Of a DNA stretch of 64,000 nucleotides, positions 10,603 to 52,720 are shown in pieces; position 1 is the stretch's first letter, and the number at the start of each line of letters is the position of its first letter. Source of the DNA: Candidatus Latescibacterota bacterium (GTDB lineage: Bacteria; Latescibacterota; UBA2968); the NCBI GenBank assembly GCA_965116885.1, contig OZ220741.1:1056001-1120000 (forward strand), in the 5' to 3' direction. The notes beneath the pieces were generated by a model, which saw only the letters and a list, made by a program, of their open reading frames with translations, was not told the DNA's origin and did no database searches. The translations under genes were made by a program, and so were the position numbers.

Positions 10603-12024
10603 ATGCCAAAACCAACAGACGTAAAAATCAAATCCGTCGCCACCTACTTCCTCCCCGTACAAACGCGCATCCCCTATCGCTTTGGCACCGAACAACTCGA
10701 CAGCGTCACCTGCGTCAGAGTCCGCATCGACGTCGAAGACCGGCGCGGCAACATTGCTTCTGGCTGGGGAGAAACACCCTTGAGCGCGCCCTGGGCATGG
10801 CCATCGCCACACCTCACGTATGCCATCAGAGAAACGGCCATGAAAAACTTCTGCCTCAAAATCGGACGCGCATGGGCAGATATCGACACAACGGGGCACC
10901 CCATAGAAATCGGCCACGCATTCCAGGAAAACATCCTCCCCAATCTCCTATCGGCCTTCAATATCGAACAACAAAACACCACAGGGGACATGCCCCGCCT
11001 ATCCGCACTCGTCTGCACATCGGCTTATGACCTCGCCCTGCACGACGCTTATGGCATGCTTCACAACATCGACATCTACGACACGTACAACGCAGACTTC
11101 ATGAACGCCGACCTCGCGCACTACCTCGACCCCGCCGACATCGACTACAACTTCTCCGGTCGCTATCCCGAAAACTATCTCATCCGCCCGCGACCAAACC
11201 GCCTGCCCGCCTGGCACGCCGTAGGCGGCAACGACCTCCTCGACGACGCCGAACGCACAGGCGATGAACCCGACGACGGCTATCCCGTAGTCCTTCCCGA
11301 CTGGATACGGCGCGACGGCATCACCTGCCTCAAAATCAAACTCACCGGACAAGAACCCGGATGGGATTACGACCGCATCGTCCACATCGGACAAATCGGC
11401 ATCGAAAACAACGCCATGTGGTTGTGTACAGACTTCAACTGCACCGTCCGGGAAGTCGATTACGTCAACGACATCCTGGACCGCCTCCTCACCGACCACC
11501 CGCGCATCTATCAAATGATCCTCTACGTCGAACAGCCCTTCGCTTACGAACTATCCGACAACCCCCTCAACGTCCACAGTATCTCTGCGCGCAAACCCCT
11601 CTTCATGGACGAAAGCGCGCACGACTGGCGCGTGATATGCCTGGGGCGGCAACTCGGCTGGACCGGCGTAGCCCTCAAAACCTGCAAAACCCAGACCGGC
11701 GCCCTGCTCTCCCTCTGCTGGGCGCGCGCACACGGCATGACACTCATGGTACAGGACCTCACAAATCCCATGCTCGCGCAAATCCCCCACGCCCTGCTCA
11801 CCGCCCATGCCGGCACCGTCATGGGCTTTGAAACCAACGCCATGCAATTCTACCCCGACGCCTCAATCCCCGAAGCCGCCATACACCCCGGCGTCTATCG
11901 CCGACAAAACGGTCACATCGACATCTCCACAGTCGAAGGACCCGGCTTTGGATACAAACACCATTTGATTGACCGCACACTACCCGAACCTGCTGACCAC
12001 CGATTCGTCTATGAACTGGCCTGA
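10603..12024 (+). CDS. Enolase-superfamily (mandelate racemase/MLE-like) enzyme of unknown substrate
   Basis: N-terminal capping domain (GWGET), KIK motif, metal ligands DFN, EQP and DES, KTCK. Confidence 0.75.
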   Translation: MPKPTDVKIKSVATYFLPVQTRIPYRFGTEQLDSVTCVRVRIDVEDRRGNIASGWGETPLSAPWAWPSPHLTYAIRETAMKNFCLKIGRAWADIDTTGHPIEIGHAFQENILPNLLSAFNIEQQNTTGDMPRLSALVCTSAYDLALHDAYGMLHNIDIYDTYNADFMNADLAHYLDPADIDYNFSGRYPENYLIRPRPNRLPAWHAVGGNDLLDDAERTGDEPDDGYPVVLPDWIRRDGITCLKIKLTGQEPGWDYDRIVHIGQIGIENNAMWLCTDFNCTVREVDYVNDILDRLLTDHPRIYQMILYVEQPFAYELSDNPLNVHSISARKPLFMDESAHDWRVICLGRQLGWTGVALKTCKTQTGALLSLCWARAHGMTLMVQDLTNPMLAQIPHALLTAHAGTVMGFETNAMQFYPDASIPEAAIHPGVYRRQNGHIDISTVEGPGFGYKHHLIDRTLPEPADHRFVYELA

Positions 12025-12086: not shown

Positions 12087-12677
12087 ATGTCCTCACGCAC
12101 CGCACACATCCAGCGCAAAACCTCTGAAACCGACATCGACCTCACCCTCGCCCTCACGGGCACGGGAGAATCGCACATCGACACGGGCATTGGCTTTTTT
12201 GACCACATGCTCACAGCCCTTGCCCGCCACGGCTTATTCGACCTCACCGTCACCTGTAAAGGCGACCTCGAAGTCGATGCCCACCACACCGTCGAAGACG
12301 TCGGCATCTGCCTCGGTCAAGCACTATCTAACGCACTGGGCGACAAAGCCGGCATCGCGCGATTCGGCGCTGCGTACGTACCCATGGATGAAGCCCTCGC
12401 CCGCGCCGTAATCGATCTCTCTGGACGCGCACACCTGATCTATAACGCCGCATTCGCCGAAGAACGCATCGGCGCATTTCCCACGGCACTGGGCCTCGAA
12501 TTTTTCACCGCACTCGCGCACAACAGCCGCATGAACCTGCACATCGACCTCATCCGCGGCAACAACGCGCACCACGGCATGGAAGCCATCTTCAAAGCCG
12601 TCGCCCGATCCCTGCGACAAGCCGTCACCCTCGACAACAGAATCAGCGGCATACCCTCAACCAAAGGAAGCCTGTGA
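12087..12677 (+). CDS. hisB: Imidazoleglycerol-phosphate dehydratase (monofunctional)
   Basis: RKTSETDI, GFFDHML, DAHHTVED, PMDEAL, NAHHGMEAIFK, PSTKGSL. Confidence 0.97.
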   Translation: MSSRTAHIQRKTSETDIDLTLALTGTGESHIDTGIGFFDHMLTALARHGLFDLTVTCKGDLEVDAHHTVEDVGICLGQALSNALGDKAGIARFGAAYVPMDEALARAVIDLSGRAHLIYNAAFAEERIGAFPTALGLEFFTALAHNSRMNLHIDLIRGNNAHHGMEAIFKAVARSLRQAVTLDNRISGIPSTKGSL

Positions 12678-13228
12678 ACGCAAAACCCGCAGCATTCATC
12701 GACCGCGACGGCACAATCAACATCGAGGTCCACTACCTCAACCGCGTGGAACAACTCCAACTCATCCCACGCGCGGGAGAAGCCATTGCGCGCCTCAACC
12801 AGGCCGGTTATCCCGTCATCGTCATCACCAACCAATCCGCCATAGGTCGCGGCCTGCTCACAGAAACCGGACTCTCTGAGATCCACCGCGAACTCAAACA
12901 TCAATTATCAGCCTACAACGCCTCCATCGACGCCATCTACCATTGCCCCCATCACGAAAAAGACAACTGCACCTGCCGCAAACCCGCGCCGGGCATGATC
13001 TTGCGCGCCGCCAATGAACACAACATCGACCTCGCGGGTTCTATCATGATAGGCGACAACGCAACCGACCTCGAAGCCGGATGGAACGCCGGCTGTCGCG
13101 CAGCCCTCGTGCGAACCGGCTCTGGCGAAGACGCCCTGAAAAAAATCGACCGACAAACGCGCGACCGCATAAGCTATATTGGCAACGACTTATTCGACAT
13201 CGTAAACTGGATGCTCACACATGCGTAA
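12674..13228 (+). CDS. gmhB: HAD phosphatase, heptose-1,7-bisphosphate phosphatase / histidinol-phosphatase family
   Basis: DRDGTIN, TNQS, CPHH...CTCRKP, MIGD; GTGA overlap with hisB. Confidence 0.85.
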   Translation: MNAKPAAFIDRDGTINIEVHYLNRVEQLQLIPRAGEAIARLNQAGYPVIVITNQSAIGRGLLTETGLSEIHRELKHQLSAYNASIDAIYHCPHHEKDNCTCRKPAPGMILRAANEHNIDLAGSIMIGDNATDLEAGWNAGCRAALVRTGSGEDALKKIDRQTRDRISYIGNDLFDIVNWMLTHA

Positions 13229-14642
13229 ATTTCCCCCCATAGACCTCTCCAAAGTCAAAACCCACGCGCTCTCGGAACGCGACAGCAAAGTCGCGCTCTC
13301 GGGATTTGCCACCCCTGCGCGCAGTGGCGCGTCCTTTGGCCATTTTCTCACCAGCCTGCCCGACATCTTAATCGGTGCCGACTTTCGCCAATTCGCGCGC
13401 CAACTCGCCCGTGCCATCCAGAACAAAAAAACCATCGCCATCGGCATAGGCGGTCACGTCATCAAATGCGGCCTATCCCCCGTAATCATCGACCTCATGA
13501 AACGCGGCTACATCTCTGCCATAGCCATGAACGGCGCCACAGCCATCCACGACATCGAAATCGCCATGCACGGACAAACATCCGAAGACGTCGCCCACGG
13601 ACTTCAAGACGGCTCCTTTGGCATGGCGCGAGACACCGGTGACTTTATCAACCACGCCATCAACGCATCAGCAGGCGGATACGGCAGCGCACTCGGCAAA
13701 AAAATCACAGACACAGACCTGCCACACCGCGACCACAGCATCCTCGCCCATGCCCATATATTAGACATACCAGCCACTGTACACGTCGCCATAGGCACAG
13801 ACATCACGCACCAGCAACCAGGAGTTAGTGGCGAAGCCATTGGCCGCGCGACCTTTGAAGACTTTCGCACCTTCTGCTCTGTCGTCTCCACCCTCGAAGG
13901 CGGCGCGTACCTCAACATTGGCTCTGCCGTCATCCTCCCCGAACTCTTTCTCAAAGCCCTCACCGTAGCCCGCAACCTCGGTCACACCGTCGATCACTTC
14001 ACCACAGCCAACTTCGACATGATCCAGCACTATCGCCCGCGCGTCAACGTCGTACAGCGCCCCACCATGCAAGGCGGCGAAGGCTACGCCTTTACCGGCC
14101 ACCACGAACTCATGATCCCCCTGCTCGCGCACGCGCTTACCTGCATGCTCGAAGCCCCTCCCCCCGACCACAAAATGATCACCCGCGAACGGGCCATCCA
14201 AATACGCAACCGCCTCAAAGACATCGGCGCAAAAGTCGTCTTCACCAACGGCTGTTTTGACCTCATCCACCGCGGCCACGTCACCTACCTCCAAAAAGCC
14301 AGCACACACGGCGAAGTCCTCTTCCTGGGCCTCAACACCGACGCATCCGTACGCCGTCTCAAAGGTCCTGATCGCCCCATCTTACCCCTCGAAGACCGCG
14401 CCGGAGTACTCGCCGCCCTCGAATGCATCGACTATATTATCCCCTTTGCCGAAGACACCCCCAAAAACCTCATAGCCGCCCTCTTGCCCGACGTCCTCAT
14501 CAAAGGCGGAGACTATCAACCCGAAGAAATCGTCGGACGCGAAGAAGTCGAATCCCACGGGGGCATTGTCACCACCATCCCCCTAATCGAAGGCCAATCC
14601 ACGACCAGCATCATCGAAAAAATTCGCGGAGGCAACACATGA
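13221..14642 (+). CDS. Fusion of a deoxyhypusine-synthase-like domain (~aa 1-310) and heptose-1-phosphate adenylyltransferase (HldC/RfaE domain II)
   Basis: N-terminal GGHVIKCGL, AMNGATAIHD, HVAIGTDI, NIGSAVILPE, GHHELMIP; C-terminal FTNGCFDLIHRGH, GLNTDASVRRLKG, KGGDY, STTSII. Confidence 0.85.
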   Translation: MRKFPPIDLSKVKTHALSERDSKVALSGFATPARSGASFGHFLTSLPDILIGADFRQFARQLARAIQNKKTIAIGIGGHVIKCGLSPVIIDLMKRGYISAIAMNGATAIHDIEIAMHGQTSEDVAHGLQDGSFGMARDTGDFINHAINASAGGYGSALGKKITDTDLPHRDHSILAHAHILDIPATVHVAIGTDITHQQPGVSGEAIGRATFEDFRTFCSVVSTLEGGAYLNIGSAVILPELFLKALTVARNLGHTVDHFTTANFDMIQHYRPRVNVVQRPTMQGGEGYAFTGHHELMIPLLAHALTCMLEAPPPDHKMITRERAIQIRNRLKDIGAKVVFTNGCFDLIHRGHVTYLQKASTHGEVLFLGLNTDASVRRLKGPDRPILPLEDRAGVLAALECIDYIIPFAEDTPKNLIAALLPDVLIKGGDYQPEEIVGREEVESHGGIVTTIPLIEGQSTTSIIEKIRGGNT

Positions 14643-15613
14643 CCCGGGACCGCCTCCGCGAAATACTCCATTCATTTTCCAATCGCCGCGTCACAGTCAT
14701 CGGCGACCTCATGCTCGACCACTACCTGTGGGGCATAACCAGACGCATCTCTCCCGAAGCACCCGTACCCATCGTCAATATCGAATCTGAAACCCATCGC
14801 CCCGGAGGTGCCGCCAATGTCGCTTATAACCTGCGCGTACTCGGTGCTCAGGTCACCGCTGCCGGCGTCATCGGGCAAGACCTCAATGGCGAACACCTCA
14901 AAACCGCACTAAACAAAGAAGGCATTGACCTCTCCGGCATAATCGAAACCCCACATCGCCCCACAACATCAAAAACGCGCATCATGGGACACACACAATA
15001 CCGACAACAACAGCAAATGATGCGCATCGACAGAGAAGTCGCCCTCCCTGTCACCGGCAAACTCCTCAACCAGCTCCGCGATGCCATAGCCCAGTCTCAC
15101 GCACCCGACGCCATCTTTGTATCCGACTATGCCAAAGGCGTCGTCACACCCGACCTCATGGACACCGTGCGCCGCAACACCTGCCCCATCATCGCCGATC
15201 CAAAAGGCCGCAACTTCGACAAATACCGGGGTGTCACCGCCATCTCGCCCAACCAATCTGAAGCACTCGGCGTATTTAACCTATACGATACCGACGAAAA
15301 AACAATCATCGACACCGGACATCGCCTCGTCAAAGAATACGAAATCGCACAGGTCTATATGACCCGCAGCGAAAAAGGCGTCGCTCTCTTTGAGACTGAC
15401 GGCCGCGTCACCCACATCCCGGCCACCGCCCGTCAGGTATTCGATGTCTCTGGCGCGGGCGACACCACAGCCGCAGTCTATACCCTTGCCCTCATCTCGG
15501 GCGCCTCACCCGCCGAAGCCGCGCATATAGGCAACCTCGCAGGCGGCATCGTCGTCGGCAAAGTAGGCGTTGACACTGTATCGGTTGACGAACTCACAAA
15601 CGCCATACAATAA
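14639..15613 (+). CDS. rfaE1: Heptose-7-phosphate kinase (HldA/RfaE domain I)
   Basis: GDLMLDHY, RISPEAPVP, GGAANVA, SDYAKG, DVSGAGDT; ATGA overlap at 14639 is the likely start. Confidence 0.92.
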   Translation: MTRDRLREILHSFSNRRVTVIGDLMLDHYLWGITRRISPEAPVPIVNIESETHRPGGAANVAYNLRVLGAQVTAAGVIGQDLNGEHLKTALNKEGIDLSGIIETPHRPTTSKTRIMGHTQYRQQQQMMRIDREVALPVTGKLLNQLRDAIAQSHAPDAIFVSDYAKGVVTPDLMDTVRRNTCPIIADPKGRNFDKYRGVTAISPNQSEALGVFNLYDTDEKTIIDTGHRLVKEYEIAQVYMTRSEKGVALFETDGRVTHIPATARQVFDVSGAGDTTAAVYTLALISGASPAEAAHIGNLAGGIVVGKVGVDTVSVDELTNAIQ

Positions 15614-15614
15614 C

Positions 15615-16715
15615 ATGAACATCTTACACACCCTATACGACGACATCGACAACCCCTGGTGTGGTGGGGGTGGTGCCCTGCGCACATGGGAAATAGCCCG
15701 TCGCCTGTCGCACAAACACCAGATCACTATTATAACAGGCGCGTATCCCAACGCACCCAGAGAAGAAACCCGAGAAGGCGTACACATCCGCCGCGTGGGA
15801 TCAGACCGCTCGTATCTCCGGAGCCGAATGAGCTTTGCCCACCACGCCTCCCGCGAAATCGCCCGCGCAAACACCGACCTGTGGGTCCATCAATTCTCTG
15901 CCTTTGCTCCCCTCTTCGTCTCCGCAAAAAAAAGACGCGACAGCCTCCTCGAATTCTTCCACTTCATGGACGACCACGCCATTGCAAAATATCCCGTGCT
16001 CGGCCACATTGCCCGAAAAGCCGAACAGCGCGCCCTGCGCCTTCACCCGCACATCCTGACCATCTCGCCCACCGTCACGCGCCAGCTTGAAAAACGCGCG
16101 ACAAACGCGCAATTTCACCTCGTCTATACCGGCGTCGATCAAATCTGTTTTGAAGCACCCTGGGCAGAACAGGACTACATCCTCTATTTTGGGCGCATGG
16201 ACATCCACAACAAAGGCATCGACATCCTCCTATCCGCCTTTGCCAAACTCAACGCACCCGACATCCGCCTCATCCTCTCGGGACGCGGAACCCCGCAAAG
16301 CAAACGCGAAATACGATCTCTCGCCAATCAGCTCAACATCGCAAACCGCGTCGAATTCACCGGCGCCGTCACACCCGAACAAAAAAATAGCCTCATGGGC
16401 CATGCCCTCTTTGTCTGCACCCCCTCGCGCTACGAAGGCTGGGGCATTGTCGCCATTGAAGCCGCAGCCGCTGCAAAAGCCGTCATAGGCACCGACATCC
16501 CCGGATTGGCAGATGCCATCCGCGCCGATGAAACCGGCCTTCTCGTCCCCCCCGAAAATCCCCAGGCACTCGCCAACGCCATGAACCGCCTGCGCAGCGA
16601 CGCCCTCCTGCGCAAACGCCTGGGAACAGCGGGCCGCAAATGGGCTGCACAATTCACCTGGGACCGCACGGCACAAGCGCAAGAAGAAGTCTATTTGAAA
16701 GTCGCCAATGACTAA
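15615..16715 (+). CDS. Glycosyltransferase family 4
   Basis: GGGG N-terminal loop, YFGR...KG, PSRYEGWGIVAIEA. Confidence 0.9.
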   Translation: MNILHTLYDDIDNPWCGGGGALRTWEIARRLSHKHQITIITGAYPNAPREETREGVHIRRVGSDRSYLRSRMSFAHHASREIARANTDLWVHQFSAFAPLFVSAKKRRDSLLEFFHFMDDHAIAKYPVLGHIARKAEQRALRLHPHILTISPTVTRQLEKRATNAQFHLVYTGVDQICFEAPWAEQDYILYFGRMDIHNKGIDILLSAFAKLNAPDIRLILSGRGTPQSKREIRSLANQLNIANRVEFTGAVTPEQKNSLMGHALFVCTPSRYEGWGIVAIEAAAAAKAVIGTDIPGLADAIRADETGLLVPPENPQALANAMNRLRSDALLRKRLGTAGRKWAAQFTWDRTAQAQEEVYLKVAND

Positions 16716-18225
16716 ACGAACCCCAACACACCTCTTCATCTTCCTCCTCTGCATCTACGCCCTCACAGCGGGCGGGCATTACGGAGGCGATGGCTTTTGG
16801 AATTACCTCACCGCACAAAGCCTAATGCGCGACGGCGACCTCGTCATCTCCGATGAAAGTTTCACCCTGCCCGAAATGCAAAAACACCTCAATGCGGTCA
16901 CGTCGTCTGGACGCCAGTATTCCAAATACGGTCCCGGCATGCCCCTCGCAGAAATACCCTTCTACGCCATTGGCCTCCTGCTCACCGGCATCTTTCCCAA
17001 TATCCCCGCCGACTACCTCACCATGTTCACCACATCGATGACCAACGTGGTCATATCCGCCCTGTGGGTCCTCTTCTTTTATTTTATCATTCAATCATTC
17101 AATTACCCACCATCCACCACAAAGTGGCTCACAGGCGCCTTTGCACTGGGCACAATGGTCTTTCCATACTCCGGATACGGATATCCAGAACCGCTCGTGG
17201 GACTCGGCCTGCTCATCGCAACGCACAGTCTCATCAAACGCTCTCCCTCACCCATCCTTGCGGGAATTGGCTTTGCCATTGCCATCCTCACCAAATTCTA
17301 CACCCTCGTCCTCCTGCCAATCCCCCTGCTCTACCTGCGCCGCAACCGATATGCCACATCGCGGCGGCTCGCCATCTTCTTATCGCCCATCGTCGCAGCC
17401 TGTCTCATAATCGCCTATCACAACCACCTGCGTTATGGCAACATCTTACTCACCGGATACCACCTGGACATACTCGCCCAAAAAGGCGGTTATCTCGCCT
17501 TTATACCCACGCAGATCTTCACCGCCTTTTACGGCCTGCTCTTCAGCACCGGACGCGGCCTCATCTTCTTTTTTCCCTTGATATGCCTCCTCCCCATCGC
17601 CTATCACAAATTCAAATCATCGCACCCAGATGAAGCGCGCCTTTTTCTCGGCTTCACCTTAACACTATTTGTTCTTCTCTTACCCATGATCGACTGGCAT
17701 GCCGGATCCTCATGGGGACCGCGTTATTTGCTTCCCATCCTCCCCTTTTGTATCTTCCCGCTCGGCGCACTCGCCGACATCAAGTGGACGCGCCGCCTCA
17801 CCGTCCTCGGCTTCTTCGTACAACTCCCCGCTGTACTGATGAACCCCTATCTCTTTACGCACCTTGTACAGGACAAAAAAATGGGCGCAACAATCTTCGC
17901 ACCTCACCAGATGGGCGACCTCCTCTTCTCACCCAACCTATCCCCAATCCTCGGCGGCTACTACCAGCTCACCTCGGCAATCTGCCGCCTCACAACAGGG
18001 CAATCGCTCAACTACACCATCTCCTCTGGCACAGAGCGCTTCGTCTCTGCATCTCTGAAAAATTACGACCTCATCGATATATGGTGGGTCAATGTCCTGC
18101 GCACAAACATCCTCAGCCCAACCATGACCCTCGCACTCATCCTCGGCGTAATCTGCCTCATACTCATCGCCATCTACTCTGCGCGGCAAGCCATGAAAAA
18201 GTCTGAATCAGGATGGGCAGGATGA
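16708..18225 (+). CDS. Polytopic membrane protein, GT-C fold (ArnT/PMT-like) glycosyltransferase
   Basis: About 11-13 hydrophobic segments; acidic GD in first loop, YSKYGPG, YPEP, WGPRYLLP. Confidence 0.7.
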   Translation: MTKRTPTHLFIFLLCIYALTAGGHYGGDGFWNYLTAQSLMRDGDLVISDESFTLPEMQKHLNAVTSSGRQYSKYGPGMPLAEIPFYAIGLLLTGIFPNIPADYLTMFTTSMTNVVISALWVLFFYFIIQSFNYPPSTTKWLTGAFALGTMVFPYSGYGYPEPLVGLGLLIATHSLIKRSPSPILAGIGFAIAILTKFYTLVLLPIPLLYLRRNRYATSRRLAIFLSPIVAACLIIAYHNHLRYGNILLTGYHLDILAQKGGYLAFIPTQIFTAFYGLLFSTGRGLIFFFPLICLLPIAYHKFKSSHPDEARLFLGFTLTLFVLLLPMIDWHAGSSWGPRYLLPILPFCIFPLGALADIKWTRRLTVLGFFVQLPAVLMNPYLFTHLVQDKKMGATIFAPHQMGDLLFSPNLSPILGGYYQLTSAICRLTTGQSLNYTISSGTERFVSASLKNYDLIDIWWVNVLRTNILSPTMTLALILGVICLILIAIYSARQAMKKSESGWAG

Positions 18226-18463: not shown

Positions 18464-20866
18464 ATGCCTGACCGCCGTTCTTCTCAACCAAAACCCCCTT
18501 CTACACTCACCAACCTCCTATCCCGCCCCTGGGTACCCATTGTATTCTTCGCCCTGCTCACCGCCGGTTATTTTTATCACATCCTCTTCACGGGCGACGT
18601 GATCTACGGCAGCGACACCGGCGCAGAATTTCATAGGGGCAACGAACCCTTTGCAGAAGCCCTGAAAAAATTGCCGCCAAAAAACTGGAGCCGATTTATG
18701 GGCGGCACCCCGGAATCGTCCGCGCTGCGATCGCAATACTATCCCCTCATCGTCATCGACCTCTTCACCAGCGAACACCGCTATTTTGGCTGGCGTTATA
18801 TCTTCGCCATGTTCACAGCCGGCTACTTCATGTACCTCTGCACACGCAGCTTTGGCCTCCACCCCCTCGCCGCCCTCATCGCAGGTGCGGCCTACGCCTC
18901 TGCCCCTGCATTCCTCTCCTTCACCCATGCCGGACACTATGCAAAAATGACCGTCATCGGCCTCTTCCCCCTCATGTACTGGGCACTCAACCGCGGCATG
19001 GACACGCGGCGCATCATCTATTTTCTCATCCTCGGCGGCACCGTCGGCATCGCCATCTACAGCCCGCACCTCCAGATGGCCTACTTTGCCCTCTGGGCAC
19101 TGGGTCTACTCTTTCTCTACAAACTCATAAAGGACCTGTTCCGTACCCAAAATAAAAAAACCGCCCTCTATCAAACCCTCCTATCGGCAGGCGCGATCTG
19201 CCTGGGCCTCGCCATAGGTGCAGAAGGCGTCATTCCCCAATACTGGAACACAAAAACATCGTCAAAACGCGCCGCCACCGAACAAACATCCGACGATGGC
19301 TACGAATTTGCCTCGTCCTGGTCGCTTCACCCCGAAGAAATATTCGCCCTCGCCATACCCGAATTTGTCGGCTTTGACACAAACACAACACCCCACAAAT
19401 ACTGGGGACGCAACGCCTTCAAAATCAACTCGGAATACGTCGGCATCGTCCCCCTCTTCTTCGCCATCTTCGCCCTCTCGCGCATACGAAAAAAGAACCA
19501 CATCGCATTCCTCCTCGGCCTCTTCATACTCGCCGTCGCCTATGCACTCGGACCCCACACCCCCCTGCACAAACTCCTGTACCACCTCATCCCCGGCGTC
19601 AGCGTACTGCGCGCGCCCGGCATGATCGCCTTCCTCTTCTCTTTTGCGCTATGTGCCCTCGGCGCGTACGGACTCCACCGCCTCATAACCGACGACACCG
19701 CCCCCGAAACCGCAAAAAAACTCGGCATCGCAGGCGGAATATGCACCGCAATCCTCCTCCTCTTTGCCTTCGTCCCCTCTGCACTCCTATCCTTATGGCA
19801 AAACATCGTCTGGACGGACATATCCGCATGGCAAGAGATCATAGTAAAAACCAGAGATACATCCCTCACCCGTCAGCAAATCGCCCAGGCGAACCTCCCC
19901 CTCACAGGACAGGGCGCATTGCTCGCCGCAATCTTCGTCGGCACGCTCACCGCCGTCTCGTATCTCCGCGCACAAAACAAACTCCAAATCCACACCTTTG
20001 CCCTCGTACTCCTCGCCATCCTCCTCATCGACACCTGGCGCATCGACAAAATGTTTCTCAACTACGTCAACCCCAACCGCGTACCACCACAGGAGCGCGT
20101 CAACGCCGACGCCGTTGCATTCCTCAAACGCGACAACAGCCTCTTCCGCGTATTCGCCCTACCAGACCACAACCAGATGCCCCTGCCCGGCATAGACCTC
20201 GTAACCGGCTTTAACGACTTTGCCATCAGACGCTACGACCACATCCTCAAATCCGGAGCCATCAACAACCCCGCGATCCTCAACCTCCTCAACACCAGAT
20301 ACATCGTCGCACCTTCTGAACTGAACATCCCCTATCTGCAAAAAATTGCCGGGCGTCAGGGACTGCACATCTACCGCAACCCCGGCGCGCTACCGTGGTT
20401 TTATCTCGCCCCCCAATACGAAATCATCCCCGATGAAAACCAGATCCTCCAAAAACTGAGCGACCCCAACACCAACCCCATACAAACAGCACTACTCGAA
20501 GAAACTCCCGGCATCGCCTCCGACACCAACGCCAGCGAAACAGACAGCATTGAACGCCTCGAATACAAAGAACACCAGGGCTACCTCAAACTCAGCACAA
20601 CAGCCCCGGGCCCCCGCATCCTCGTCATCTCGCAAAACCACCACCCCAACTGGACTGCCACCGTCAACGGCGAACCCAAACCCCTCATACGCGCCAACTA
20701 CCTCTGGACCGCAGTCGCCCTTGAACCGGGCGAACACATCGTCGAACTCACCTACCGCGACCCCATCGTAGCCACCACGCGCTGGATCACACTCGGCGGT
20801 ATCGCCATCCTCCTCATCGCAATTCCCCTCTGCATATACAATGAAAAAACCGACAACACCAACTGA
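18464..20866 (+). CDS. YfhO-family GT-C membrane protein
   Basis: Polytopic N-terminal two-thirds, EYVGI, LRAP; C-terminal LNLLNTRYI, YRNPGALP, HPNWTATVNG...RANY...LEPGEHIVELTY. Confidence 0.85.
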   Translation: MPDRRSSQPKPPSTLTNLLSRPWVPIVFFALLTAGYFYHILFTGDVIYGSDTGAEFHRGNEPFAEALKKLPPKNWSRFMGGTPESSALRSQYYPLIVIDLFTSEHRYFGWRYIFAMFTAGYFMYLCTRSFGLHPLAALIAGAAYASAPAFLSFTHAGHYAKMTVIGLFPLMYWALNRGMDTRRIIYFLILGGTVGIAIYSPHLQMAYFALWALGLLFLYKLIKDLFRTQNKKTALYQTLLSAGAICLGLAIGAEGVIPQYWNTKTSSKRAATEQTSDDGYEFASSWSLHPEEIFALAIPEFVGFDTNTTPHKYWGRNAFKINSEYVGIVPLFFAIFALSRIRKKNHIAFLLGLFILAVAYALGPHTPLHKLLYHLIPGVSVLRAPGMIAFLFSFALCALGAYGLHRLITDDTAPETAKKLGIAGGICTAILLLFAFVPSALLSLWQNIVWTDISAWQEIIVKTRDTSLTRQQIAQANLPLTGQGALLAAIFVGTLTAVSYLRAQNKLQIHTFALVLLAILLIDTWRIDKMFLNYVNPNRVPPQERVNADAVAFLKRDNSLFRVFALPDHNQMPLPGIDLVTGFNDFAIRRYDHILKSGAINNPAILNLLNTRYIVAPSELNIPYLQKIAGRQGLHIYRNPGALPWFYLAPQYEIIPDENQILQKLSDPNTNPIQTALLEETPGIASDTNASETDSIERLEYKEHQGYLKLSTTAPGPRILVISQNHHPNWTATVNGEPKPLIRANYLWTAVALEPGEHIVELTYRDPIVATTRWITLGGIAILLIAIPLCIYNEKTDNTN

Positions 20867-22373
20867 AGCATCCGCCATCCAGCGCATAGCGCACGGCGCG
20901 ATCCAAACCTTCGGCAGCACCTACCCCGCGCGAATCATCAACTTCGCGGTCCTCCTCCTGCTCTACCAGATCCTCGTACCCGAAGACTTTGGTGCCATCG
21001 CAACAGCCTATTCCATCCTCGCCCTTGTCATCGCCATCCGCGACCTCGGATTGCACTACGCCCTCTTGCACGAACACGACAACGTCCACGACCTCGCACC
21101 CACGCACTTTGTACTCAGCGTCAGTCTGGGCAGCATCAGCACACTCCTCGCCCTTGTCATCGCCCTCTATTCCGAACACCTCTTTGAACTCACCCGCACA
21201 TTCAACACGTACATCACAGACACCGATACAGAACAAACCTATCCCAAAGTCGCCATAGCCCTATGCATACTGGGCACTTTCGACCTCTTCCGAACAGCCG
21301 CCCTCACCGCCGAAACCCAGCTTCAACGCGACCTCGAATTTGGACGCCTCGCCTTTGCACATGCGGGAGGAACCATCCTCGCAGCCCTCGTCGGCCTCGC
21401 CCTCGCCTACCTCGGATACGGCAAATGGGCACTCATCCTCGGATTCTTCCCATACAGCGTCACCTATATCCTCGTCTATTGCACCGTCGTCTGGCTTCGC
21501 CATCCCCCACCAATAGGCCAACTACACACCTTCAACGCGCAAGCCGCACGGCGCATGATCCGCTACGGCTTATGGTTCTGGATCGGCGGCATACCCAAAA
21601 TCTTCATTCAACACTACGACAAACTCATCATCAGCCTGTTCTTCACCTTGAGCCTGCGCGGGATATACGACGCCGCACACAGCTTTGCACAAATACCCAC
21701 CGGAGCAATCACCATGGTCATGGTACGCATCACCGCCACAGTGTACGCGCGCTACCAGAACAACCGCGACCAACTCTCCGCAGCATACCGCCGAACCTCG
21801 CGCCTCATCCTCCGCACCACAGTTCCCATCTCCCTCGTACTCGCCCTCGAAGCCAACCGATGGATACACATCTTCAAACCCGACTGGGCACCTGCAGCCC
21901 CCCTCCTCCAATGGCTCATCATCTACGCCCTCTGCCGTCCTATCCTCGACGATGTACACGCCCTATTCTACAGTACAGGCAGCCCCAAAAGCATTGCAAA
22001 ATTCTCTGCGGCTCAAGCCCTCATCCTCCTCATCCTCGCCCCCTATCTCGCCCATCACATGGGAGCCATAGGCATCGCCATAAGCATGAACGCCATCGCC
22101 ATCGTCGGCCTCATCCTCGCACTCATCCTCGTACGCGCATACGTCGATATCCCCATCGCCAAAACTTATGCCCCCCCACTCATCGCCGCAGCCATTGGCA
22201 CCGGCATGCACTTTGCCAGTACCGAATGGCTCGATACATTGCCAATCCCAATAGGCGTCCTCGCCGGCAGCGCGATCTTTATCACAGGTTATGGCTCCGG
22301 CCTGCTCCTCGTCGAACGCAAAACACTCATCGACGAAATCAAAACCGTCATCCGCGCTATTATAAAAAAATAG
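20841..22373 (+). CDS. wzx: Oligosaccharide flippase (Wzx family)
   Basis: LVPEDFG, DLGL, LQRDLEF, about 13-14 TM segments. Confidence 0.85.
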   Translation: MKKPTTPTEASAIQRIAHGAIQTFGSTYPARIINFAVLLLLYQILVPEDFGAIATAYSILALVIAIRDLGLHYALLHEHDNVHDLAPTHFVLSVSLGSISTLLALVIALYSEHLFELTRTFNTYITDTDTEQTYPKVAIALCILGTFDLFRTAALTAETQLQRDLEFGRLAFAHAGGTILAALVGLALAYLGYGKWALILGFFPYSVTYILVYCTVVWLRHPPPIGQLHTFNAQAARRMIRYGLWFWIGGIPKIFIQHYDKLIISLFFTLSLRGIYDAAHSFAQIPTGAITMVMVRITATVYARYQNNRDQLSAAYRRTSRLILRTTVPISLVLALEANRWIHIFKPDWAPAAPLLQWLIIYALCRPILDDVHALFYSTGSPKSIAKFSAAQALILLILAPYLAHHMGAIGIAISMNAIAIVGLILALILVRAYVDIPIAKTYAPPLIAAAIGTGMHFASTEWLDTLPIPIGVLAGSAIFITGYGSGLLLVERKTLIDEIKTVIRAIIKK

Positions 22374-24456: not shown

Positions 24457-25509
24457 ATGAAAACCCTCCTCGTCACTGGTTCATCGGGCCTCATCGGCTC
24501 AGAAGTCTGCATCTATTTTGCCGAACAGGGCTATATTGTCCACGGCATTGACAACAATCAACGCGCCGTCTTTTTTGGTCCCCAGGGAGACACGCGCTGG
24601 AATCAAAAGCGCTTAAACAACGTCCTAAAACACTTCCACCACCACGAAATAGACATCCGCGACCGTATGGGCATCTGCGAACTCCTGTCCCAAATAAAAC
24701 CCAACGCCATCATACACGCAGCCGCCCAACCCTCACACGACCTCGCCGCACGCATCCCCTTCGACGACTTTGACACCAACGCCGTCGGCACGCTCAACCT
24801 CCTCGAAGCCGCGCGTCAAACCTGTCCCGAATCTCCCTTCATCCACATGTCCACCAACAAAGTCTATGGCGATGCCCCCAACCACATTCCCTTAAAAGAA
24901 CTGGACACCCGCTATGATTACGACGACCCCGCGTACAAACACGGCATCCCCGAAACATTTACCATTGACCAGTCCAAACACTCGCTCTTCGGCGCATCCA
25001 AAGTCGCCGCCGACATCATGGTACAGGAATACGGGCGTTACTTTTCCATGCCCACCTGTTGCCTGCGCGGCGGATGCCTCACCGGACCCAATCACAGCGG
25101 CGTTGAACTCCACGGCTTCTTGAGCTACCTGATCAAATGCAACATGGAAAACCACACATACACCATCTACGGCTACAAAGGCAAACAGGTACGCGACAAT
25201 ATCCACGCCCTCGACGTCGCCCGTTTCATGTGGGCCTTTGTCCAATCCCCCCGATGCGGCGAAGTCTATAACCTCGGCGGCGGCAAAAACAACAGTTGTT
25301 CCATCCTCGAAGCATTCGATCTCGCTGCCCAATACTCCAACAAAAAAATGCAATACACCTATACCGACCAGAACCGCGAAGGCGACCATATATGCTATTA
25401 CAGCGACCTTCGCAAAATGAAATCGCACTACCCCGACTGGGACATCACAAAAACCCTCGAAGACACCTTTGCCGAAATTGTCTCAAGCTGGCAAAAACGA
25501 CTCATATAA
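24457..25509 (+). CDS. NAD-dependent nucleotide-sugar epimerase, CDP-paratose-2-epimerase-like
   Basis: [36 protein letters not shown]. Confidence 0.85.
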
Positions 25510-26498: not shown

Positions 26499-28643
26499 AT
26501 GCAAGACATCAACAAAACACTTTTTTACGCCCTGATCGCGCTCTACGGCATCCTCATCCTGAGCACATTCCACCAGTATGGCATCACCATTGATGAACCC
26601 CCTCAAGTAGCCTATGGACAGGCCGTATTTGACTGGTATTTTGGCCAGGATACAGCCGACGACTTTGCTCGAAAAATCAAACAAATTGATCTGGAATTAT
26701 ACGGCGTCTTATTCAACCTGATCGCTTACTGTGCGTCTGAAATCCTTCCCTTTAACCTCTATGACACTCACCATCTTATCAACGCAATCGCAGGACTGCT
26801 CGGCGTTGTGGCCGTTTACAAAATCGGCTCAACACTGGGCACATCATCCACGGGCTTGCTCGCAGCGGTCCTTCTCTTGCTCATCTCCCGTTATTACGGA
26901 CACACCTTTAACAACCCAAAAGATATCCCCTTTGCCATCTGTTACGCCTGGAGTCTCTATCACTTAATCCGGGGTCTATCCGAGATCCCCCATCTCTCAT
27001 GGAAAAGAATCCTCTTCACAGGACTGAGCATTGGATTGACCCTGGGCACGCGCATTGGCGGATTAATCCTTTTTGGCTATCTCGGTTTATTCTGGACCCT
27101 AACTTATTTCTTAGACGCGATGAGAACACCCCAAAAAAAAATCGCGCACCTCAAAACATACGCGATTCAAATGGCTTCAATCATTGCCATTGCCTGGATT
27201 GCCATGCTCGCATTCTGGCCCCGAGCACAGCAGGAGCCGTTTACCTATCCATTTTACGCACTGCGCTATTTTTCACATTTTACGCATCACGCGACCACAT
27301 TTTTCGACGGGCAGATAATACAAAGTGTTGATGTGCCGCGAACCTACGCGTTGCAATGGTTCGCCATGGTCCTGCCCGAACTCCACATCCTGTGTCTCGT
27401 CGCGGGTCTATTCTATCTCGCCTGTAATTTCAAAAAACTCACCCTATCGCGTTCCCACCTGCAATGGATACTCGTCGCCTTCGCCGCTGCTTTCCCACTC
27501 ATTTACGTTATCTCAATTCACGCGCCCCTTTACGATGGTTTTCGACACCTCCTATTCATTTTTCCACCGCTCGCCGTCATCTGTGCAGGTGGTTTAGAAC
27601 GCGCAATTCGATACCTCACCAATCGCCTCCGCGTCTTCCTGATTATACCTGTCCTCCTCGCTGGATTCCATATTTACGACATGATTCTTCTACACCCCAA
27701 TGAATATGTGTACTTCAATCGCATTTATGCCGGCGGTCTTTTCAAAGCATCTCAAAAATACCAAACCGACTATTGGGAAAATACCTACAAACAGGGCATT
27801 GCCTGGCTCGATATGCATTATGCCACACTCTCGGGAGGCCGCAAACTCCGCATTGGTGCGGGAAGCCAAAATGCACAATACTTGCTCAATAAAGAGCGAT
27901 ATGTATTCGAACCGGTGCCAGAACACATCGATCTGTATTTGAGTACAACCCGCGATGATCGCCACAAGTTGATCCCCGGAGAAATCCTTCACACAGTCCA
28001 GAGAGACCGGGTACCTCTTTTTTATGTTATTCGCCCCGATAGTAGTTATAATACAGATCCATTCTTCACCAACCAGGCCATCCGGTATAAAACATTAGCG
28101 TGGAAACACATCAGAAATAAAAATTATTCAGCGGCCCGCGACGCTTACAAAAAAGCCCTCCATCACGACCCTGACGATCCGCTTGCACACACCAACATAG
28201 GCATGGCTTACTACAACTTAAAAGAATACAAAAAAGCACGAGAACACCTTGAACGAGCAATCGCGCTTGCGCCTGAATACACCACAGCGTACAAGCACCT
28301 GGGAAATGTATATGACGCCCTCAAACAATATCCCAAAGCACTATCCACATATCGCAAAATCCTGGCCCGGGAGCCAGGCCTTGTAGGTATCCAGTACAAC
28401 ATAGGCGTTGTCTCACTCAAACAATTGCAATTTGAATCTGCTATTGAGGCATTTGAAAAGGTCCTCAAATCCAATCCCGAGTATCACAATGCCCATCTGG
28501 GACTTGCAATGTCATACGAAAAGAGCAATCAGATTTTAAAAGCGATTGACGCCTATCGCAATGTGCTAAAATACAAAGGACCCGATCCCAGGATCAGAGC
28601 CAAAATACAAGCACTTCAAGATTCTTCTACATCTTCAATGTAA
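26499..28643 (+). CDS. GT-C (PMT/ArnT-like) glycosyltransferase with C-terminal TPRs
   Basis: GITIDEP, YGHTFNNPKDIPF, LYDGFRHLLF, TDYW; about 5 TPRs from aa ~525. Confidence 0.82.
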   Translation: MQDINKTLFYALIALYGILILSTFHQYGITIDEPPQVAYGQAVFDWYFGQDTADDFARKIKQIDLELYGVLFNLIAYCASEILPFNLYDTHHLINAIAGLLGVVAVYKIGSTLGTSSTGLLAAVLLLLISRYYGHTFNNPKDIPFAICYAWSLYHLIRGLSEIPHLSWKRILFTGLSIGLTLGTRIGGLILFGYLGLFWTLTYFLDAMRTPQKKIAHLKTYAIQMASIIAIAWIAMLAFWPRAQQEPFTYPFYALRYFSHFTHHATTFFDGQIIQSVDVPRTYALQWFAMVLPELHILCLVAGLFYLACNFKKLTLSRSHLQWILVAFAAAFPLIYVISIHAPLYDGFRHLLFIFPPLAVICAGGLERAIRYLTNRLRVFLIIPVLLAGFHIYDMILLHPNEYVYFNRIYAGGLFKASQKYQTDYWENTYKQGIAWLDMHYATLSGGRKLRIGAGSQNAQYLLNKERYVFEPVPEHIDLYLSTTRDDRHKLIPGEILHTVQRDRVPLFYVIRPDSSYNTDPFFTNQAIRYKTLAWKHIRNKNYSAARDAYKKALHHDPDDPLAHTNIGMAYYNLKEYKKAREHLERAIALAPEYTTAYKHLGNVYDALKQYPKALSTYRKILAREPGLVGIQYNIGVVSLKQLQFESAIEAFEKVLKSNPEYHNAHLGLAMSYEKSNQILKAIDAYRNVLKYKGPDPRIRAKIQALQDSSTSSM

Positions 28644-28653
28644 ACGCAATATC

Positions 28654-29592
28654 ATGATTTCAATTATCGTTCCCCTATACAACGAAGCACCGAATCTCGG
28701 ACCTCTAACCGATCGCCTGCACAGAGCGTCATCACAATGGCAAATGCCCTATGAAGTCATCTTTGTCGATGACGGCAGCACGGACAACAGCCGATCCATC
28801 CTCGAAGAAATTCACCAGAAGCACCCCAACCATCACTACCTCGGTCTCTCTCGAAATTTCGGACATCAACCAGCCTTGTGTGCCGGGCTCAGCCGTGCCA
28901 GAGGTAAAGCCATAGTCCTCATTGACGCGGATCTTCAAGACCCACCCGAATGTATTGCGCTTTTACTCGACAAATGGCGTGAAGGATACCAGGTCGTTTA
29001 CGGCATTCGCCAACATCGCAAAGAAAACTTCCTCAAACGCGCTTCCTACTGGATTTTTTATCGCCTTTTAAACAAACTCGCAAATATTTCCACACCCTTA
29101 GATGCCGGCGACTTTTGTGTCTTAGATCGCCAGGTGGTCGATCATCTCAATGCCCTGCCCGAACGCAACCGCTTCATGCGCGGCCTGCGCGCGTGGGTGG
29201 GCTTCTCGCAAATAGGCGTAACTTATGAACGCCAGGCGCGTTTTTCAGGAAAAAGAAAATACACCCTTCGCCACTTGCTCAAGCTGGCAATAGACGGCCT
29301 CACCAATTTCTCGATTCGCCCGCTTCAATGGGTCGGCATAATTGGCGTGCTCGTCTCCATCTTTTCTTTTTCAGGCCTTCTGTTTTACGGTATTCTAAGA
29401 ATTTTCGATCTGTCATTTTGGGGACACAGCCCTGGGGATGTTCCGGGCTTCACAACCCTGATCTTCGTAATCCTCTTCGCCAGCGGCATCCAGATGCTCG
29501 CGCTTGGCATCCTGGGTCTATACATGGGACGTATCTTCGAAGAAATCAAACAGCGCCCCCTTTACATCATCGAAAAAACATCCGACGAGTAG
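28654..29592 (+). CDS. GT2 polyprenol-phosphate glycosyltransferase (GtrB/YkcC-like)
   Basis: PLYNE, VDDGSTD, SRNFGHQ, DADLQDPP, GDF, ERNRFMRGL, two C-terminal TMs, RPLY. Confidence 0.92.
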   Translation: MISIIVPLYNEAPNLGPLTDRLHRASSQWQMPYEVIFVDDGSTDNSRSILEEIHQKHPNHHYLGLSRNFGHQPALCAGLSRARGKAIVLIDADLQDPPECIALLLDKWREGYQVVYGIRQHRKENFLKRASYWIFYRLLNKLANISTPLDAGDFCVLDRQVVDHLNALPERNRFMRGLRAWVGFSQIGVTYERQARFSGKRKYTLRHLLKLAIDGLTNFSIRPLQWVGIIGVLVSIFSFSGLLFYGILRIFDLSFWGHSPGDVPGFTTLIFVILFASGIQMLALGILGLYMGRIFEEIKQRPLYIIEKTSDE

Positions 29593-29597
29593 TTTTT

Positions 29598-31175: not shown

Positions 31176-32173
31176 CCACCCGAGAAAAAATACTCATCTT
31201 CCGCCCCGATCACATCGGCGACCTGCTGCTCACCACGCCAGCGCTCTACGCCCTTCGCAAAGCAAAACCACACGCACACATCGGCATCCTCGTCAGTTCC
31301 TGGTCATCCCCGATCCTATCGGGAAACCCGGACATCGACGACATATTGATCTGCGACCTCCCCTGGCTCGACCGCGGTGAAAATCCCTCCTATCTACCGC
31401 TCTTGCCAATCATCCACCAGATCAGATCACAGCAATACGACCACATACTCAACTTTCGCATCGCCGCAAAAGCCGCCGCATTCTCTCGCCTGCTCGGCAC
31501 CAAAGAACGCTGGGGATTTGACGTCTTAAAATCGCGCTGGGCCTGGACACATGCCGTCCCTTATAATCCCAACCAGCATGTCGTAGATAACTACATGACC
31601 CTTGCGCGTGCATATACCCGCAGCGAAGACACACCCGTAAACTTCCGCATCTTTCCCGAAACAGCCGACCTGTCCGGCATTGACGAATTTATGCACAACA
31701 GCCCACCTGCCATTGTCCTCGGTGTCACATCTGGTCGCCCCGACAAATCCTGGCTCCCCGACCGCTGGGCAAAAGTTGCCGATCACATCGCCAAAGACGG
31801 CTTTCGCATCCTCCTCAACGGCGGACCCACAGAAGAAACAGACGTTCAGATGGTACAATCGCTCATGCACCATCCCGCAGAAAATCTCGTCGGTCGCTTT
31901 TCGCTGCTTCAATTCGCCGGACTGCTCAAACGCTGTGCTGCCATCATCACACTCGACTCATTTCCCATGCACCTCGCAGCGGCCCTCGGCATCCCAACCA
32001 TCGCGCTCTTTGGCGCCAACAGCAGCACATTGTGGGGACCCTATCCGGGCAACTACCCCCGCATCATCGTTGAACCGCCACCCGAAATTCCTCGAAACGC
32101 CCAGGCCATGAAATGGATCCAAACCTCACACGTCATAGACGCTTATAACCGCCTCAACCTCCAACAACAATAG
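31172..32173 (+). CDS. Glycosyltransferase family 9 (ADP-heptose heptosyltransferase-like)
   Basis: RPDHIGDLLLTTP, KSW, LDSFPMHLAAALGIPTIALFG. Confidence 0.9.
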   Translation: MTTREKILIFRPDHIGDLLLTTPALYALRKAKPHAHIGILVSSWSSPILSGNPDIDDILICDLPWLDRGENPSYLPLLPIIHQIRSQQYDHILNFRIAAKAAAFSRLLGTKERWGFDVLKSRWAWTHAVPYNPNQHVVDNYMTLARAYTRSEDTPVNFRIFPETADLSGIDEFMHNSPPAIVLGVTSGRPDKSWLPDRWAKVADHIAKDGFRILLNGGPTEETDVQMVQSLMHHPAENLVGRFSLLQFAGLLKRCAAIITLDSFPMHLAAALGIPTIALFGANSSTLWGPYPGNYPRIIVEPPPEIPRNAQAMKWIQTSHVIDAYNRLNLQQQ

Positions 32174-36722: not shown

Positions 36723-36731
36723 ATGAACCAC

Positions 36732-50775: not shown

Positions 50776-50802
50776 GACCGACCATTTTTTAAGGAGCTTT
50801 TC

Positions 50803-51783: not shown

Positions 51784-51787
51784 AGAC

Positions 51788-51868
51788 GGGACGGCACAGG
51801 GGCCGTCCCCTACAAGATACACAACCGACCCAGACAACCACTGTAGGGGCGACCCCCTGTGGTCGCCC
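51788..51868. repeat. Inverted pair of GTAG-type REPs
   Basis: gggacggc-acaggg-gccgtccc-ctac (51788-51813) and gtag-gggcgacc-ccctgt-ggtcgccc (51843-51868). Confidence 0.8.
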
Positions 51869-51900
51869 GCACCATAACCCATAACAAATGGTCTTACACC

Positions 51901-52473: not shown

Positions 52474-52519
52474 CACACAATCCCGCGTTTGGGATATTGT
52501 TCACCATGGAACATCAGGT

Positions 52520-52606
52520 GCCGAAGTGGTGGAACTGGTAGACGCGCTGGACTCAAAATCCAGTGGCCGCAAGGCCGTGTGGGTTCGAGTCCCACCTTCG
52601 GCACCA
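52520..52606 (+). tRNA. tRNA-Leu (CAA)
   Basis: 87 nt, long variable arm, anticodon arm ctgga-ctCAAaa-tccag, CCA end; promoter TTGACA-17-GATATT at 52470-98. Confidence 0.95.
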
Positions 52607-52621
52607 TAAATTCGCTTTTTC

Positions 52622-52657: not shown

Positions 52658-52720
52658 TTTGCCTTGACAGCGGGAATAAACTGTATTAGGATGCATCCCG
52701 ATATTCACAGGAGAGACATA

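Follow-up and report, generated by a model that had tools for sequence, protein, structure and literature searches.

A conserved deoxyhypusine synthase-like domain fused to HldC in Latescibacterota: a candidate enzyme of the ADP-heptose pathway

Introduction

ADP-heptose synthesis is required for the inner core of lipopolysaccharide (LPS), is a target for antibiotic adjuvants and provides the ligand that ALPK1, an innate immune sensor of vertebrates, recognises. HldD, the last enzyme of the pathway, epimerises C6 by transient oxidation, using a tightly bound nicotinamide cofactor. Here we describe a gene from a Candidatus Latescibacterota bacterium (GenBank assembly GCA_965116885.1, contig OZ220741.1) that joins the ADP-heptose adenylyltransferase HldC to a domain of the GSU2086 family, whose predicted fold resembles that of deoxyhypusine synthase (DHS). 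The gene lies in a 64,000-nucleotide stretch of the contig (positions 1,056,001 to 1,120,000; hereafter the window), to which all coordinates refer. We find that the domain very probably belongs to the heptose pathway. The best explanation overall, which we hold tentatively and by analogy, is a bifunctional nucleotide-heptose enzyme whose N-terminal domain would act as a hydride-borrowing epimerase in place of HldD.

The closest described relative is GSU2086 of Geobacter sulfurreducens, the type gene of NCBIfam family NF052581. It lies in the operon gmhB (GSU2084)–hldE (GSU2085)–GSU2086–gmhA (GSU2087) (PMC3495685; PMC5585712 supplement) and overlaps gmhA by 4 nt (PMC5585712 supplement file 2). 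The transposon sequencing (Tn-seq) values given for this operon indicate a similar defect for hldE (−3.1), GSU2086 (−3.2) and gmhA (−3.7) (PMC5585712). The names hldD, rfaD, gmhD, 6-epimerase and ADP-L have no occurrence in the searched supplementary files of that study, including the per-gene Tn-seq table. In an author commentary on a survey of heptose enzymes across kingdoms, three known types of nucleotidyltransferase are named: monodomain, kinase/nucleotidyltransferase and isomerase/kinase/nucleotidyltransferase (PMC11573728); a GSU2086–HldC architecture is not among these three. A literature search, with bioRxiv supplements and subscription journals outside its scope, found neither a characterisation of the GSU2086 family nor any work joining "deoxyhypusine synthase-like" with heptose.

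Results

A GSU2086-family domain fused to HldC

The open reading frame (ORF) under study encodes 473 amino acids (aa) from an ATG start without an internal stop codon. A preliminary description of this DNA had noted an uninterrupted frame joining a domain of about 310 aa to HldC, placed between gmhB and the kinase gene with all three genes overlapping. This arrangement was confirmed, with overlaps of 8 nt and 4 nt. The gene and its parts are as follows.

13221..14642, + strand: GSU2086–HldC fusion coding sequence, 473 aa (NCBIfam, Pfam, AlphaFold2 (AF2))
13236..14135, + strand: GSU2086-family domain, aa 6-305, DHS-like fold (NF052581, AF2, Foldseek)
14136..14204, + strand: inter-domain linker, aa 306-328 (gap between the two NCBIfam envelopes)
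14205..14627, + strand: HldC domain, aa 329-469 (TIGR02199, PF01467)

The N-terminal domain matches NF052581 with 411.9 bits (cut-off 250), and aa 6-305 cover the profile from end to end (positions 1-301 of 301). The preliminary description had presented the protein as a candidate new enzyme, which overstates the case, as its N-terminal domain is already catalogued. The C-terminal domain scores 194.4 bits against TIGR02199 (rfaE_dom_II; cut-off 181.5) and 58.9 bits against PF01467. It carries HRGH at aa 350-353 and STTSII at aa 460-465, which we take to be the HxGH nucleotidyltransferase motif and the STT-type C-terminal motif, respectively. Judged by its sequence, residues 329-469 are a bona fide HldC. 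In Pfam and NCBIfam scans the fusion protein had no match to a SIS model (TIGR00441), to the HldD model TIGR02197 or to any other short-chain dehydrogenase/reductase (SDR) model.

The AF2 model of the full-length protein has a mean predicted local distance difference test score (pLDDT) of 88.6 and a predicted template modelling score (pTM) of 0.80, with the weakest mid-protein block (pLDDT around 70) at aa 311-320. The pTM suggests that in the modelled protein the GSU2086 and HldC domains pack in a defined manner, and such packing would suit the hand-over of an intermediate.

Fusions across the family connect the domain to the heptose pathway

Domain architectures were assigned for 385 family proteins by local domain assignment and NCBIfam. 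The set is biased, since one search was aimed at longer proteins and another gave top hits only, and the counts below therefore show that an architecture exists, not how frequent it is.

Stand-alone GSU2086: 227 of 385
GSU2086–HldC: 48 of 385, two with an extra ~300 aa
HldC–GSU2086: 4 of 385, two with an extra ~400 aa comprising a DUF89 phosphatase domain
GSU2086–GmhA: 42 of 385
GmhA–GSU2086: 1 of 385
GmhB–GSU2086, GSU2086–HldA, GSU2086–HldA–HldC, HldC–GmhB–GSU2086 and GSU2086–HldC–GmhB: 1 each of 385
Tandem duplicates of GSU2086: 48 of 385

No domain resembling E. coli HldD was present in any of the 385 proteins. In a midpoint-rooted FastTree phylogeny of the domain, GSU2086–HldC proteins fall into four separate clades and HldC–GSU2086 proteins into two, a scatter which indicates that the fusion to HldC arose repeatedly. 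Several clades of GmhA fusions are weakly supported, and we therefore make no claim for the number of GmhA fusion events.

In Paenibacillus, Cohnella, Bacillus and Neobacillus, around 60 clusters (P0270-P0331, P0108, P0121) consist of ~660-aa proteins with two tandem GSU2086 domains, 35-43% identical to the window domain. Their first halves form one clade (support 1.0), and most of the second halves group together (support 0.77). Two 826-aa proteins (P0177, P0355) contain HldC and GSU2086 together with a DUF89 "damage-control phosphatase" domain; from this architecture, the DUF89 domain may replace GmhB in the organisms concerned. Some members lie on contigs labelled Nanoarchaeota or Undinarchaeota (L017, L071, P0058, P0337), among them a GmhB–HldC–GSU2086 triple fusion and a gene row GmhA > GmhB > GSU2086; these contigs may be genuinely archaeal or mis-binned. 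Fusions annotated to DUF3108 (P0335) or CPBP (P0340, P0341) may be true fusions or gene-calling read-through.

Heptose and LPS genes surround homologues in many phyla

Gene neighbourhoods were analysed in 80 loci, each spanning at most 8 kb on either side of the homologue, and neighbours within 3 kb of the GSU2086 match were counted with the help of tblastn.

HldA: 28 of 80 loci
HldC: 26 of 80 loci
GmhB: 13 of 80 loci
GmhA: 3 of 80 loci
GT9 heptosyltransferase-family gene: 23 of 80 loci
DUF3108: 30 of 80 loci, the commonest immediate neighbour
ManC-type guanylyltransferase: 4 of 80 loci

At least one heptose-pathway gene was present in 29 loci, a heptose gene or GT9 in 48, and a heptose gene, GT9 or DUF3108 in 58; the linkage of homologues to heptose genes thus extends well beyond the window. 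No neighbour resembling E. coli HldD was found within this distance in any of the 80 loci. Genes for LpxK, LptF/G, a lipid A acyltransferase, KdsB, a Kdo/WaaP-type kinase, an O-antigen ligase and BamA recur in the neighbourhoods as well. In loci of Bacteroidota, Ignavibacteriota and Chlorobi type, a conserved block reads GT9–DUF3108–GSU2086–CPBP protease–CdsA–RimO–GWxTD–BamA–RNase HII (L016, L020, L030, L031, L053, L063, L065, L080 and others).

The gmhA gene adjoins the GSU2086 gene in L057 and L075, and L071 has the order GmhA > GmhB > GSU2086. Two plasmids carry related arrangements: PfkB (HldE-like) > GSU2086-like > SIS on Solidesulfovibrio pDCAR1, and HAD > GSU2086-like > hypothetical > SIS, amid sugar-uptake genes, on a plasmid from Chloroflexota. 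Among the 53 neighbour clusters present in at least three loci there were no polyamine genes, and LarB, LarC and LarE were not seen.

A DHS-like fold in a large, conserved family

The family is large. At least 8000 clusters at 90% identity, all of those scored, match at E ≤ 1e-3, and an exhaustive search of 50%-identity representatives returned 547 matches at E ≤ 1e-30 and 1721 at E ≤ 1e-10. Compared with the window domain, stand-alone members of ~315 aa in distant phyla show 54-61% identity. In an alignment of 75 sequences 49 columns are invariant, with His, Asp, Glu, Lys, Arg and Tyr abundant among them, and the window protein has all 49; they include (window numbering) H79, K82, N104, G105, H110, D111, E113, S121, E122, H188, H197, D214, N232, E241, K245, D266, Y271, R272, R280, H295 and E296. 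Most members are labelled "hypothetical protein", a few "deoxyhypusine synthase" and, in newer NCBI records, "GSU2086 family protein", while clusters in the ESM Atlas carry only the labels "hypothetical protein" or "putative deoxyhypusine synthase". The GSU2086 family is catalogued, but an orphan in function.

An AF2 model of the N-terminal domain, built with the 75-sequence alignment, reached a pLDDT of 94 and a pTM of 0.89. When it was compared with the Protein Data Bank (PDB) using Foldseek, the top match was the deoxyhypusine synthase 7cmc (E 5e-9, TM-score 0.60-0.63, 12-17% identity), followed by the archaeal LOR/SDH-type protein 3c2q and then by ArgZ/AgrE structures, including the AgrE–ornithine–NAD+ complex 6lrg. 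There were 100 PDB matches at E ≤ 0.001, with DHS entries at the head among the matches listed. A PDB sequence profile search with the same domain gave nothing better than E 0.19. In Pfam, aa 55-120 yielded only the sub-threshold matches DS (PF01916; 23.2 bits, cut-off 27) and ArgZ-like_C_2nd (26.5 bits, cut-off 27). The DHS and homospermidine synthase models of NCBIfam likewise stayed below their cut-offs: TIGR00321 at 19.6 bits (304.25), NF002630 at 22.1 (364) and NF001980 at 19.1 (450), the matching part being aa 55-123. Since the fold is that of DHS but the sequence models fail by a wide margin, the domain, as modelled, has a DHS fold without being a DHS. The preliminary description had called it DHS-like, which stands for the fold and for a sequence motif but not for membership of the DHS families.

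One idea was dropped. The current name of TIGR00300 and PMC13524815, which cites Desguin 2025 for a nickel-pincer variant of archaeal cyclodeaminases, had suggested a nickel-pincer cofactor; the absence of Lar genes from the neighbour clusters described above spoke against it.

The heptose operon and the rest of the window

The fusion gene belongs to a gapless run of seven genes, from gmhB to the flippase. These and the other genes relevant here are listed below.

12674..13228, + strand: gmhB, directly after hisB (NF006506, 183.8 bits, cut-off 178)
14639..15613, + strand: hldA, heptose 7-phosphate kinase (TIGR02198, 343.9 bits, about 1 bit short of the cut-off of 345; PfkB, 144.7 bits)
15570..16715, + strand: GT4 glycosyltransferase (PF00534, 128.3 bits)
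16708..18225, + strand: 505-aa protein that looks polytopic-membrane from its translation, overlapping the end of the GT4 gene (no Pfam match)
18464..20866, + strand: YfhO-like membrane protein (PF09586, 52.6 bits)
20841..22373, + strand: polysaccharide flippase-type protein (PF13440, 127.5 bits)
31172-32170, + strand: GT9 heptosyltransferase-family gene (PF01075, 127.1 bits; TIGR02201, 137.3 bits, below the cut-off of 170.2)
33181-34302, + strand: extended SDR epimerase/dehydratase, two genes past GT9 (best NCBIfam model GalE, 137.9 bits)

The start of the fusion gene at 13221 overlaps the end of gmhB (TAA, 13226-13228) by 8 nt, and its stop codon (TGA, 14640-14642) shares the 4-nt ATGA with the hldA start at 14639. 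Relatives begin at the equivalent of this ATG. The longest ORF that covers hldA opens 216 nt earlier, at 14423 inside hldC, and its Arg/Pro/His-rich extension (14423-14638) is an out-of-frame reading of the C-rich strand, not the hldA N-terminus. An automatic gene caller could mis-start hldA at 14423, as happened in L002-L004. Sequence at the junction makes ATG 15615, right behind the hldA stop, the likely start of the GT4 gene.

The closest loci are records of Latescibacterota metagenome-assembled genomes (L001-L004), which are 93-95% identical in amino acid sequence over the N-terminal domain and share the gene order of the window, hisG–hisD–hisC–(enolase-like)–hisB–gmhB–fusion–hldA–GT4–membrane protein. 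The GT4 gene follows hldA in the Latescibacterota loci, and the 505-aa protein keeps its place behind it (cluster 11, "memb512"; for example L001-L008, L012). The fused ORF itself recurs in 12 of the 80 loci, all 12 being Latescibacterota records, which speaks against a chance arrangement. The window locus is an ordinary-looking cell-envelope operon with a normal member of a catalogued family.

The preliminary description had reported no gmhA and no recognisable hldD in the window, and a GT9 gene downstream. Each of these held. None of the 38 window ORFs scanned has a SIS domain in Pfam, and tblastn with the L071 GmhA gave nothing in the window at E ≤ 1e-3. Both SDR genes of the window fall far below the TIGR02197 cut-off of 274.6 bits, that at 24457-25506 with 43.8 bits and that at 33181-34302 with 108.5 bits. 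The latter is the window's sole HldD-like candidate, with 23% identity to E. coli HldD (E 2.6e-10), but is not assignable. The GT9 gene, a possible consumer of nucleotide-heptose, lies ~16.5 kb downstream of the fusion and is hence not adjacent to it.

Several other features of the window deserve mention. In the window (12087-13228), as in L001-L006 and L012, gmhB stands directly behind an imidazoleglycerol-phosphate dehydratase-only form of hisB that ends the hisG–hisD–hisC–…–hisB run. A separate histidinol-phosphate phosphatase was not seen among the window ORFs scanned. GmhB also reaches 142 bits with TIGR01656, a model of the histidinol-phosphatase domain, and by sequence this HAD-IIIA enzyme might serve both the histidine and the heptose pathways. 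A further 473-aa ORF (10603-12024; cluster 21) sits between hisC and hisB, a position kept in L001-L004 and L006, and has a weak enolase-superfamily C-terminal match below the cut-off (PF13378, 25.5 bits).

Over 1-34000 and 50000-64000 the + strand is very asymmetric in composition, with a GC skew of −0.12 to −0.39 and a positive AT skew, and nearly all genes are on the + strand. From ~34 to 50 kb the skew is near 0 and the GC content falls to 0.45-0.51; this part encodes a tandem pair of paralogous TPR proteins of ~680 aa each, an LRR/fn3 protein (− strand) and a sigma-54 activator. The GT9-bearing polysaccharide region includes several large membrane proteins (26499-28640, 29328-31172, 34692-38765), two with weak matches to PMT_2 (dolichyl-phosphate-mannose transferase-like), one of these TPR-tailed; a tandem pair of paralogues carries TPR tails alone.

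Discussion

A proposed role for the GSU2086 domain

Membership of the heptose pathway is strongly supported by the fusions, the 80-locus neighbourhood, the two plasmids, and the Geobacter operon with its Tn-seq data. The preliminary description had arrived at a heptose role by Rosetta-stone logic from a single fusion, and the family at large, with fusions to GmhA, HldA, GmhB, HldC and HldE, bears it out. Since the domain is fused or adjacent to all four enzymes that lead from sedoheptulose 7-phosphate to ADP-D,D-heptose, it appears to replace none of them. It was never seen together with HldD in the proteins and loci analysed. Its position next to GT9 genes resembles that of E. coli rfaD, which directly precedes waaF–waaC. 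To our knowledge, every characterised member of the DHS fold (DHS, AgrE/ArgZ and the archaeal ornithine cyclodeaminases) uses a borrowed-hydride logic with a nicotinamide-type cofactor, and this logic extends to the nickel-pincer variant of the archaeal cyclodeaminases (as cited in PMC13524815). Taken together, these observations would point to a redox-neutral epimerase replacing HldD.

We propose that the fusion protein would be a bifunctional nucleotide-heptose enzyme, co-translated in the tight gmhB–fusion–hldA–GT4–membrane-protein operon. The N-terminal domain, like characterised members of its dinucleotide-binding, DHS-type fold, would retain a bound nicotinamide-type cofactor, take a hydride from the substrate and then return it. 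Return of the hydride would epimerise a hydroxyl of the heptose, the likeliest target being C6 (D-glycero to L-glycero). Its substrate could be ADP-heptose, which the fused HldC makes, or a heptose phosphate, which GmhA makes. The domain would then be the functional counterpart of HldD, an unrelated SDR enzyme. By analogy with the fold, the chances that the domain is a redox-neutral epimerase or isomerase of some kind seem evenly balanced. That it performs specifically the step of HldD is a narrower proposal, which the same analogy leaves a good deal less probable. Equally speculative, if not slightly more so, is the extension to the whole family, in which GSU2086 proteins would be a widespread, unrecognised heptose enzyme giving L-glycero-D-manno-heptose by borrowed-hydride C6 epimerisation in lineages without HldD; the lineages taken as such are the FCB group, Desulfobacterota including Geobacter, Latescibacterota, Nitrospirota and others.

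A number of observations weigh against an HldD-like role. GmhA and HldC are both the commonest fusion partners, where a pure ADP-heptose epimerase would be expected mainly with HldC; with GmhA about as frequent a partner as HldC, a role early in the pathway fits at least equally well. The tandem duplicates occur in Paenibacillus and Cohnella, which are monoderm and lack LPS, and the Chloroflexota plasmid locus looks catabolic; neither fits a role in L,D-heptose synthesis for LPS. In 22 of the 80 loci none of the genes found within 3 kb belongs to the heptose, GT9 or DUF3108 groups, although 11 of these 22 loci are shorter than 9 kb. The absence of HldD is also open to doubt on several counts. 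With loci reaching at most 8 kb to each side, hldD may lie elsewhere in these genomes; for Geobacter, its lack is a matter of a name missing from a table; and the SDR at 33181-34302 could be a divergent HldD. Finally, polarity on neighbouring genes may account for the GSU2086 phenotype in Tn-seq.

The abundance of GmhA partners raises the alternative that the domain partners GmhA at the outset of the pathway and does not act on ADP-heptose. GmhA is fused in 43 of the 385 proteins and in most non-tandem long homologues. In Geobacter (with the 4-nt overlap), L057, L075 and the Solidesulfovibrio plasmid gmhA follows or overlaps the gene, and the Chloroflexota plasmid and L071 add two more rows in which the domain is accompanied by SIS or GmhA. 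We regard this as unlikely, yet the most serious of the competitors: in the clade of the window protein and in five or more others the domain is joined to HldC, no gmhA was found in the 64-kb window, and fused partners need not catalyse consecutive steps, HldE itself combining steps 2 and 4. The same GmhA fusions come close to refuting a different idea, raised in the preliminary description, that the domain is a non-orthologous sedoheptulose 7-phosphate isomerase standing in for GmhA. The lack of gmhA in the window speaks for it, but a GmhA replacement is hard to reconcile with those 43 fusions and with a gene that neighbours gmhA in each of Geobacter, Solidesulfovibrio, L057, L075 and L071, and we consider it very improbable. 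Even less credible, and likewise close to refuted, is an enzyme of the polyamine or hypusine type, such as deoxyhypusine synthase or homospermidine synthase, fused to HldC by chance: it would account for the DHS fold and for the weak DS and homospermidine synthase matches at aa 55-120, but TIGR00321 and NF001980 reach only 19.6 and 19.1 bits against cut-offs of 304.25 and 450, and the neighbourhood, which has no polyamine genes among its recurrent clusters, is consistently one of heptose and LPS.

Two further alternatives concern what the domain does with a nucleotide-heptose. It could make a modified one (such as an epimer at C3, C4 or C2, or a keto form as intermediate) for the GT4, membrane, YfhO-like and flippase genes instead of the LPS inner core. 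These genes directly follow the heptose genes in the window and its relatives, a ManC-type guanylyltransferase stands behind the gene in 4 of 80 loci, and the family extends to monoderm Paenibacillaceae and to archaeal contigs with DPANN labels, both without LPS. Conservation across phyla and linkage to GT9, LpxK, LptFG, KdsB and lipid A genes argue for a core, uniform function and not a lineage-specific decoration, which makes this improbable. Less probable again is a non-catalytic domain, an ADP-sugar- or dinucleotide-binding regulator or scaffold that senses ADP-heptose or organises an enzyme complex. The 49 invariant columns have the composition of an active site and stand-alone forms dominate (227 of 385), neither of which suits a scaffold, although fusion to every pathway enzyme without preference would, as would the tight packing on HldC suggested by the full-length model. 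The DHS-like fold class binds ADP-containing ligands; that ADP-heptose might be one of them goes beyond the fold match.

If HldD-type epimerisation by the GSU2086 domain proved correct, the last step of the five-enzyme ADP-heptose pathway found in textbooks could be carried out in a second way, by a non-orthologous enzyme, and the family would be the first carbohydrate-active branch of the DHS fold, with its first sugar substrate. A conserved orphan family wired into the pathway in many phyla by fusions to four of its enzymes implies that the pathway as taught is incomplete for much of bacterial diversity. Whatever the specific chemistry, the GSU2086 family is a good experimental target in a known pathway, not a new kind of system.

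Comparison with known systems

The window domain shares with Geobacter GSU2086 a match over the whole NF052581 profile and a setting in a heptose operon. Unlike the stand-alone Geobacter protein, it is fused to HldC, with hldA as a separate gene and no gmhA nearby. Its HldC half resembles RfaE domain II, the C-terminal half of E. coli HldE, in passing TIGR02199 and in carrying the HRGH and STT-type motifs; the partner is a GSU2086 domain, in contrast to the HldA kinase of HldE.

With DHS (7cmc, 1dhs) the modelled N-terminal domain has the overall fold in common (Foldseek E 5e-9 to 1e-6, TM-score 0.56-0.65), along with the motif match at aa 55-120. It differs from DHS in sequence (11-17% identity), in a context of heptose and LPS and not of polyamines and eIF5A, and in a substrate that is presumably a sugar and not an amine. 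The AgrE/ArgZ cyclodeaminases (6lrg, 6juy) and 3c2q (TIGR00300) are somewhat more distant in fold by the same model (TM-score ~0.53, E 1e-7 to 5e-6), and provide the best, non-significant PDB sequence match of the domain (aa 58-121, E 0.19-0.4). They differ in substrate class, and TIGR00300 is now named nickel-pincer-nucleotide-dependent, whereas no Lar genes were seen among the recurrent neighbour clusters of the GSU2086 loci. The likeness to HldD (RfaD/GmhD) is a proposed analogy: both belong to the same pathway, both adjoin GT9 genes, and both would use transient oxidation by a nicotinamide cofactor. The two have no sequence similarity, and the DHS-like fold of the one stands against the SDR fold of the other.

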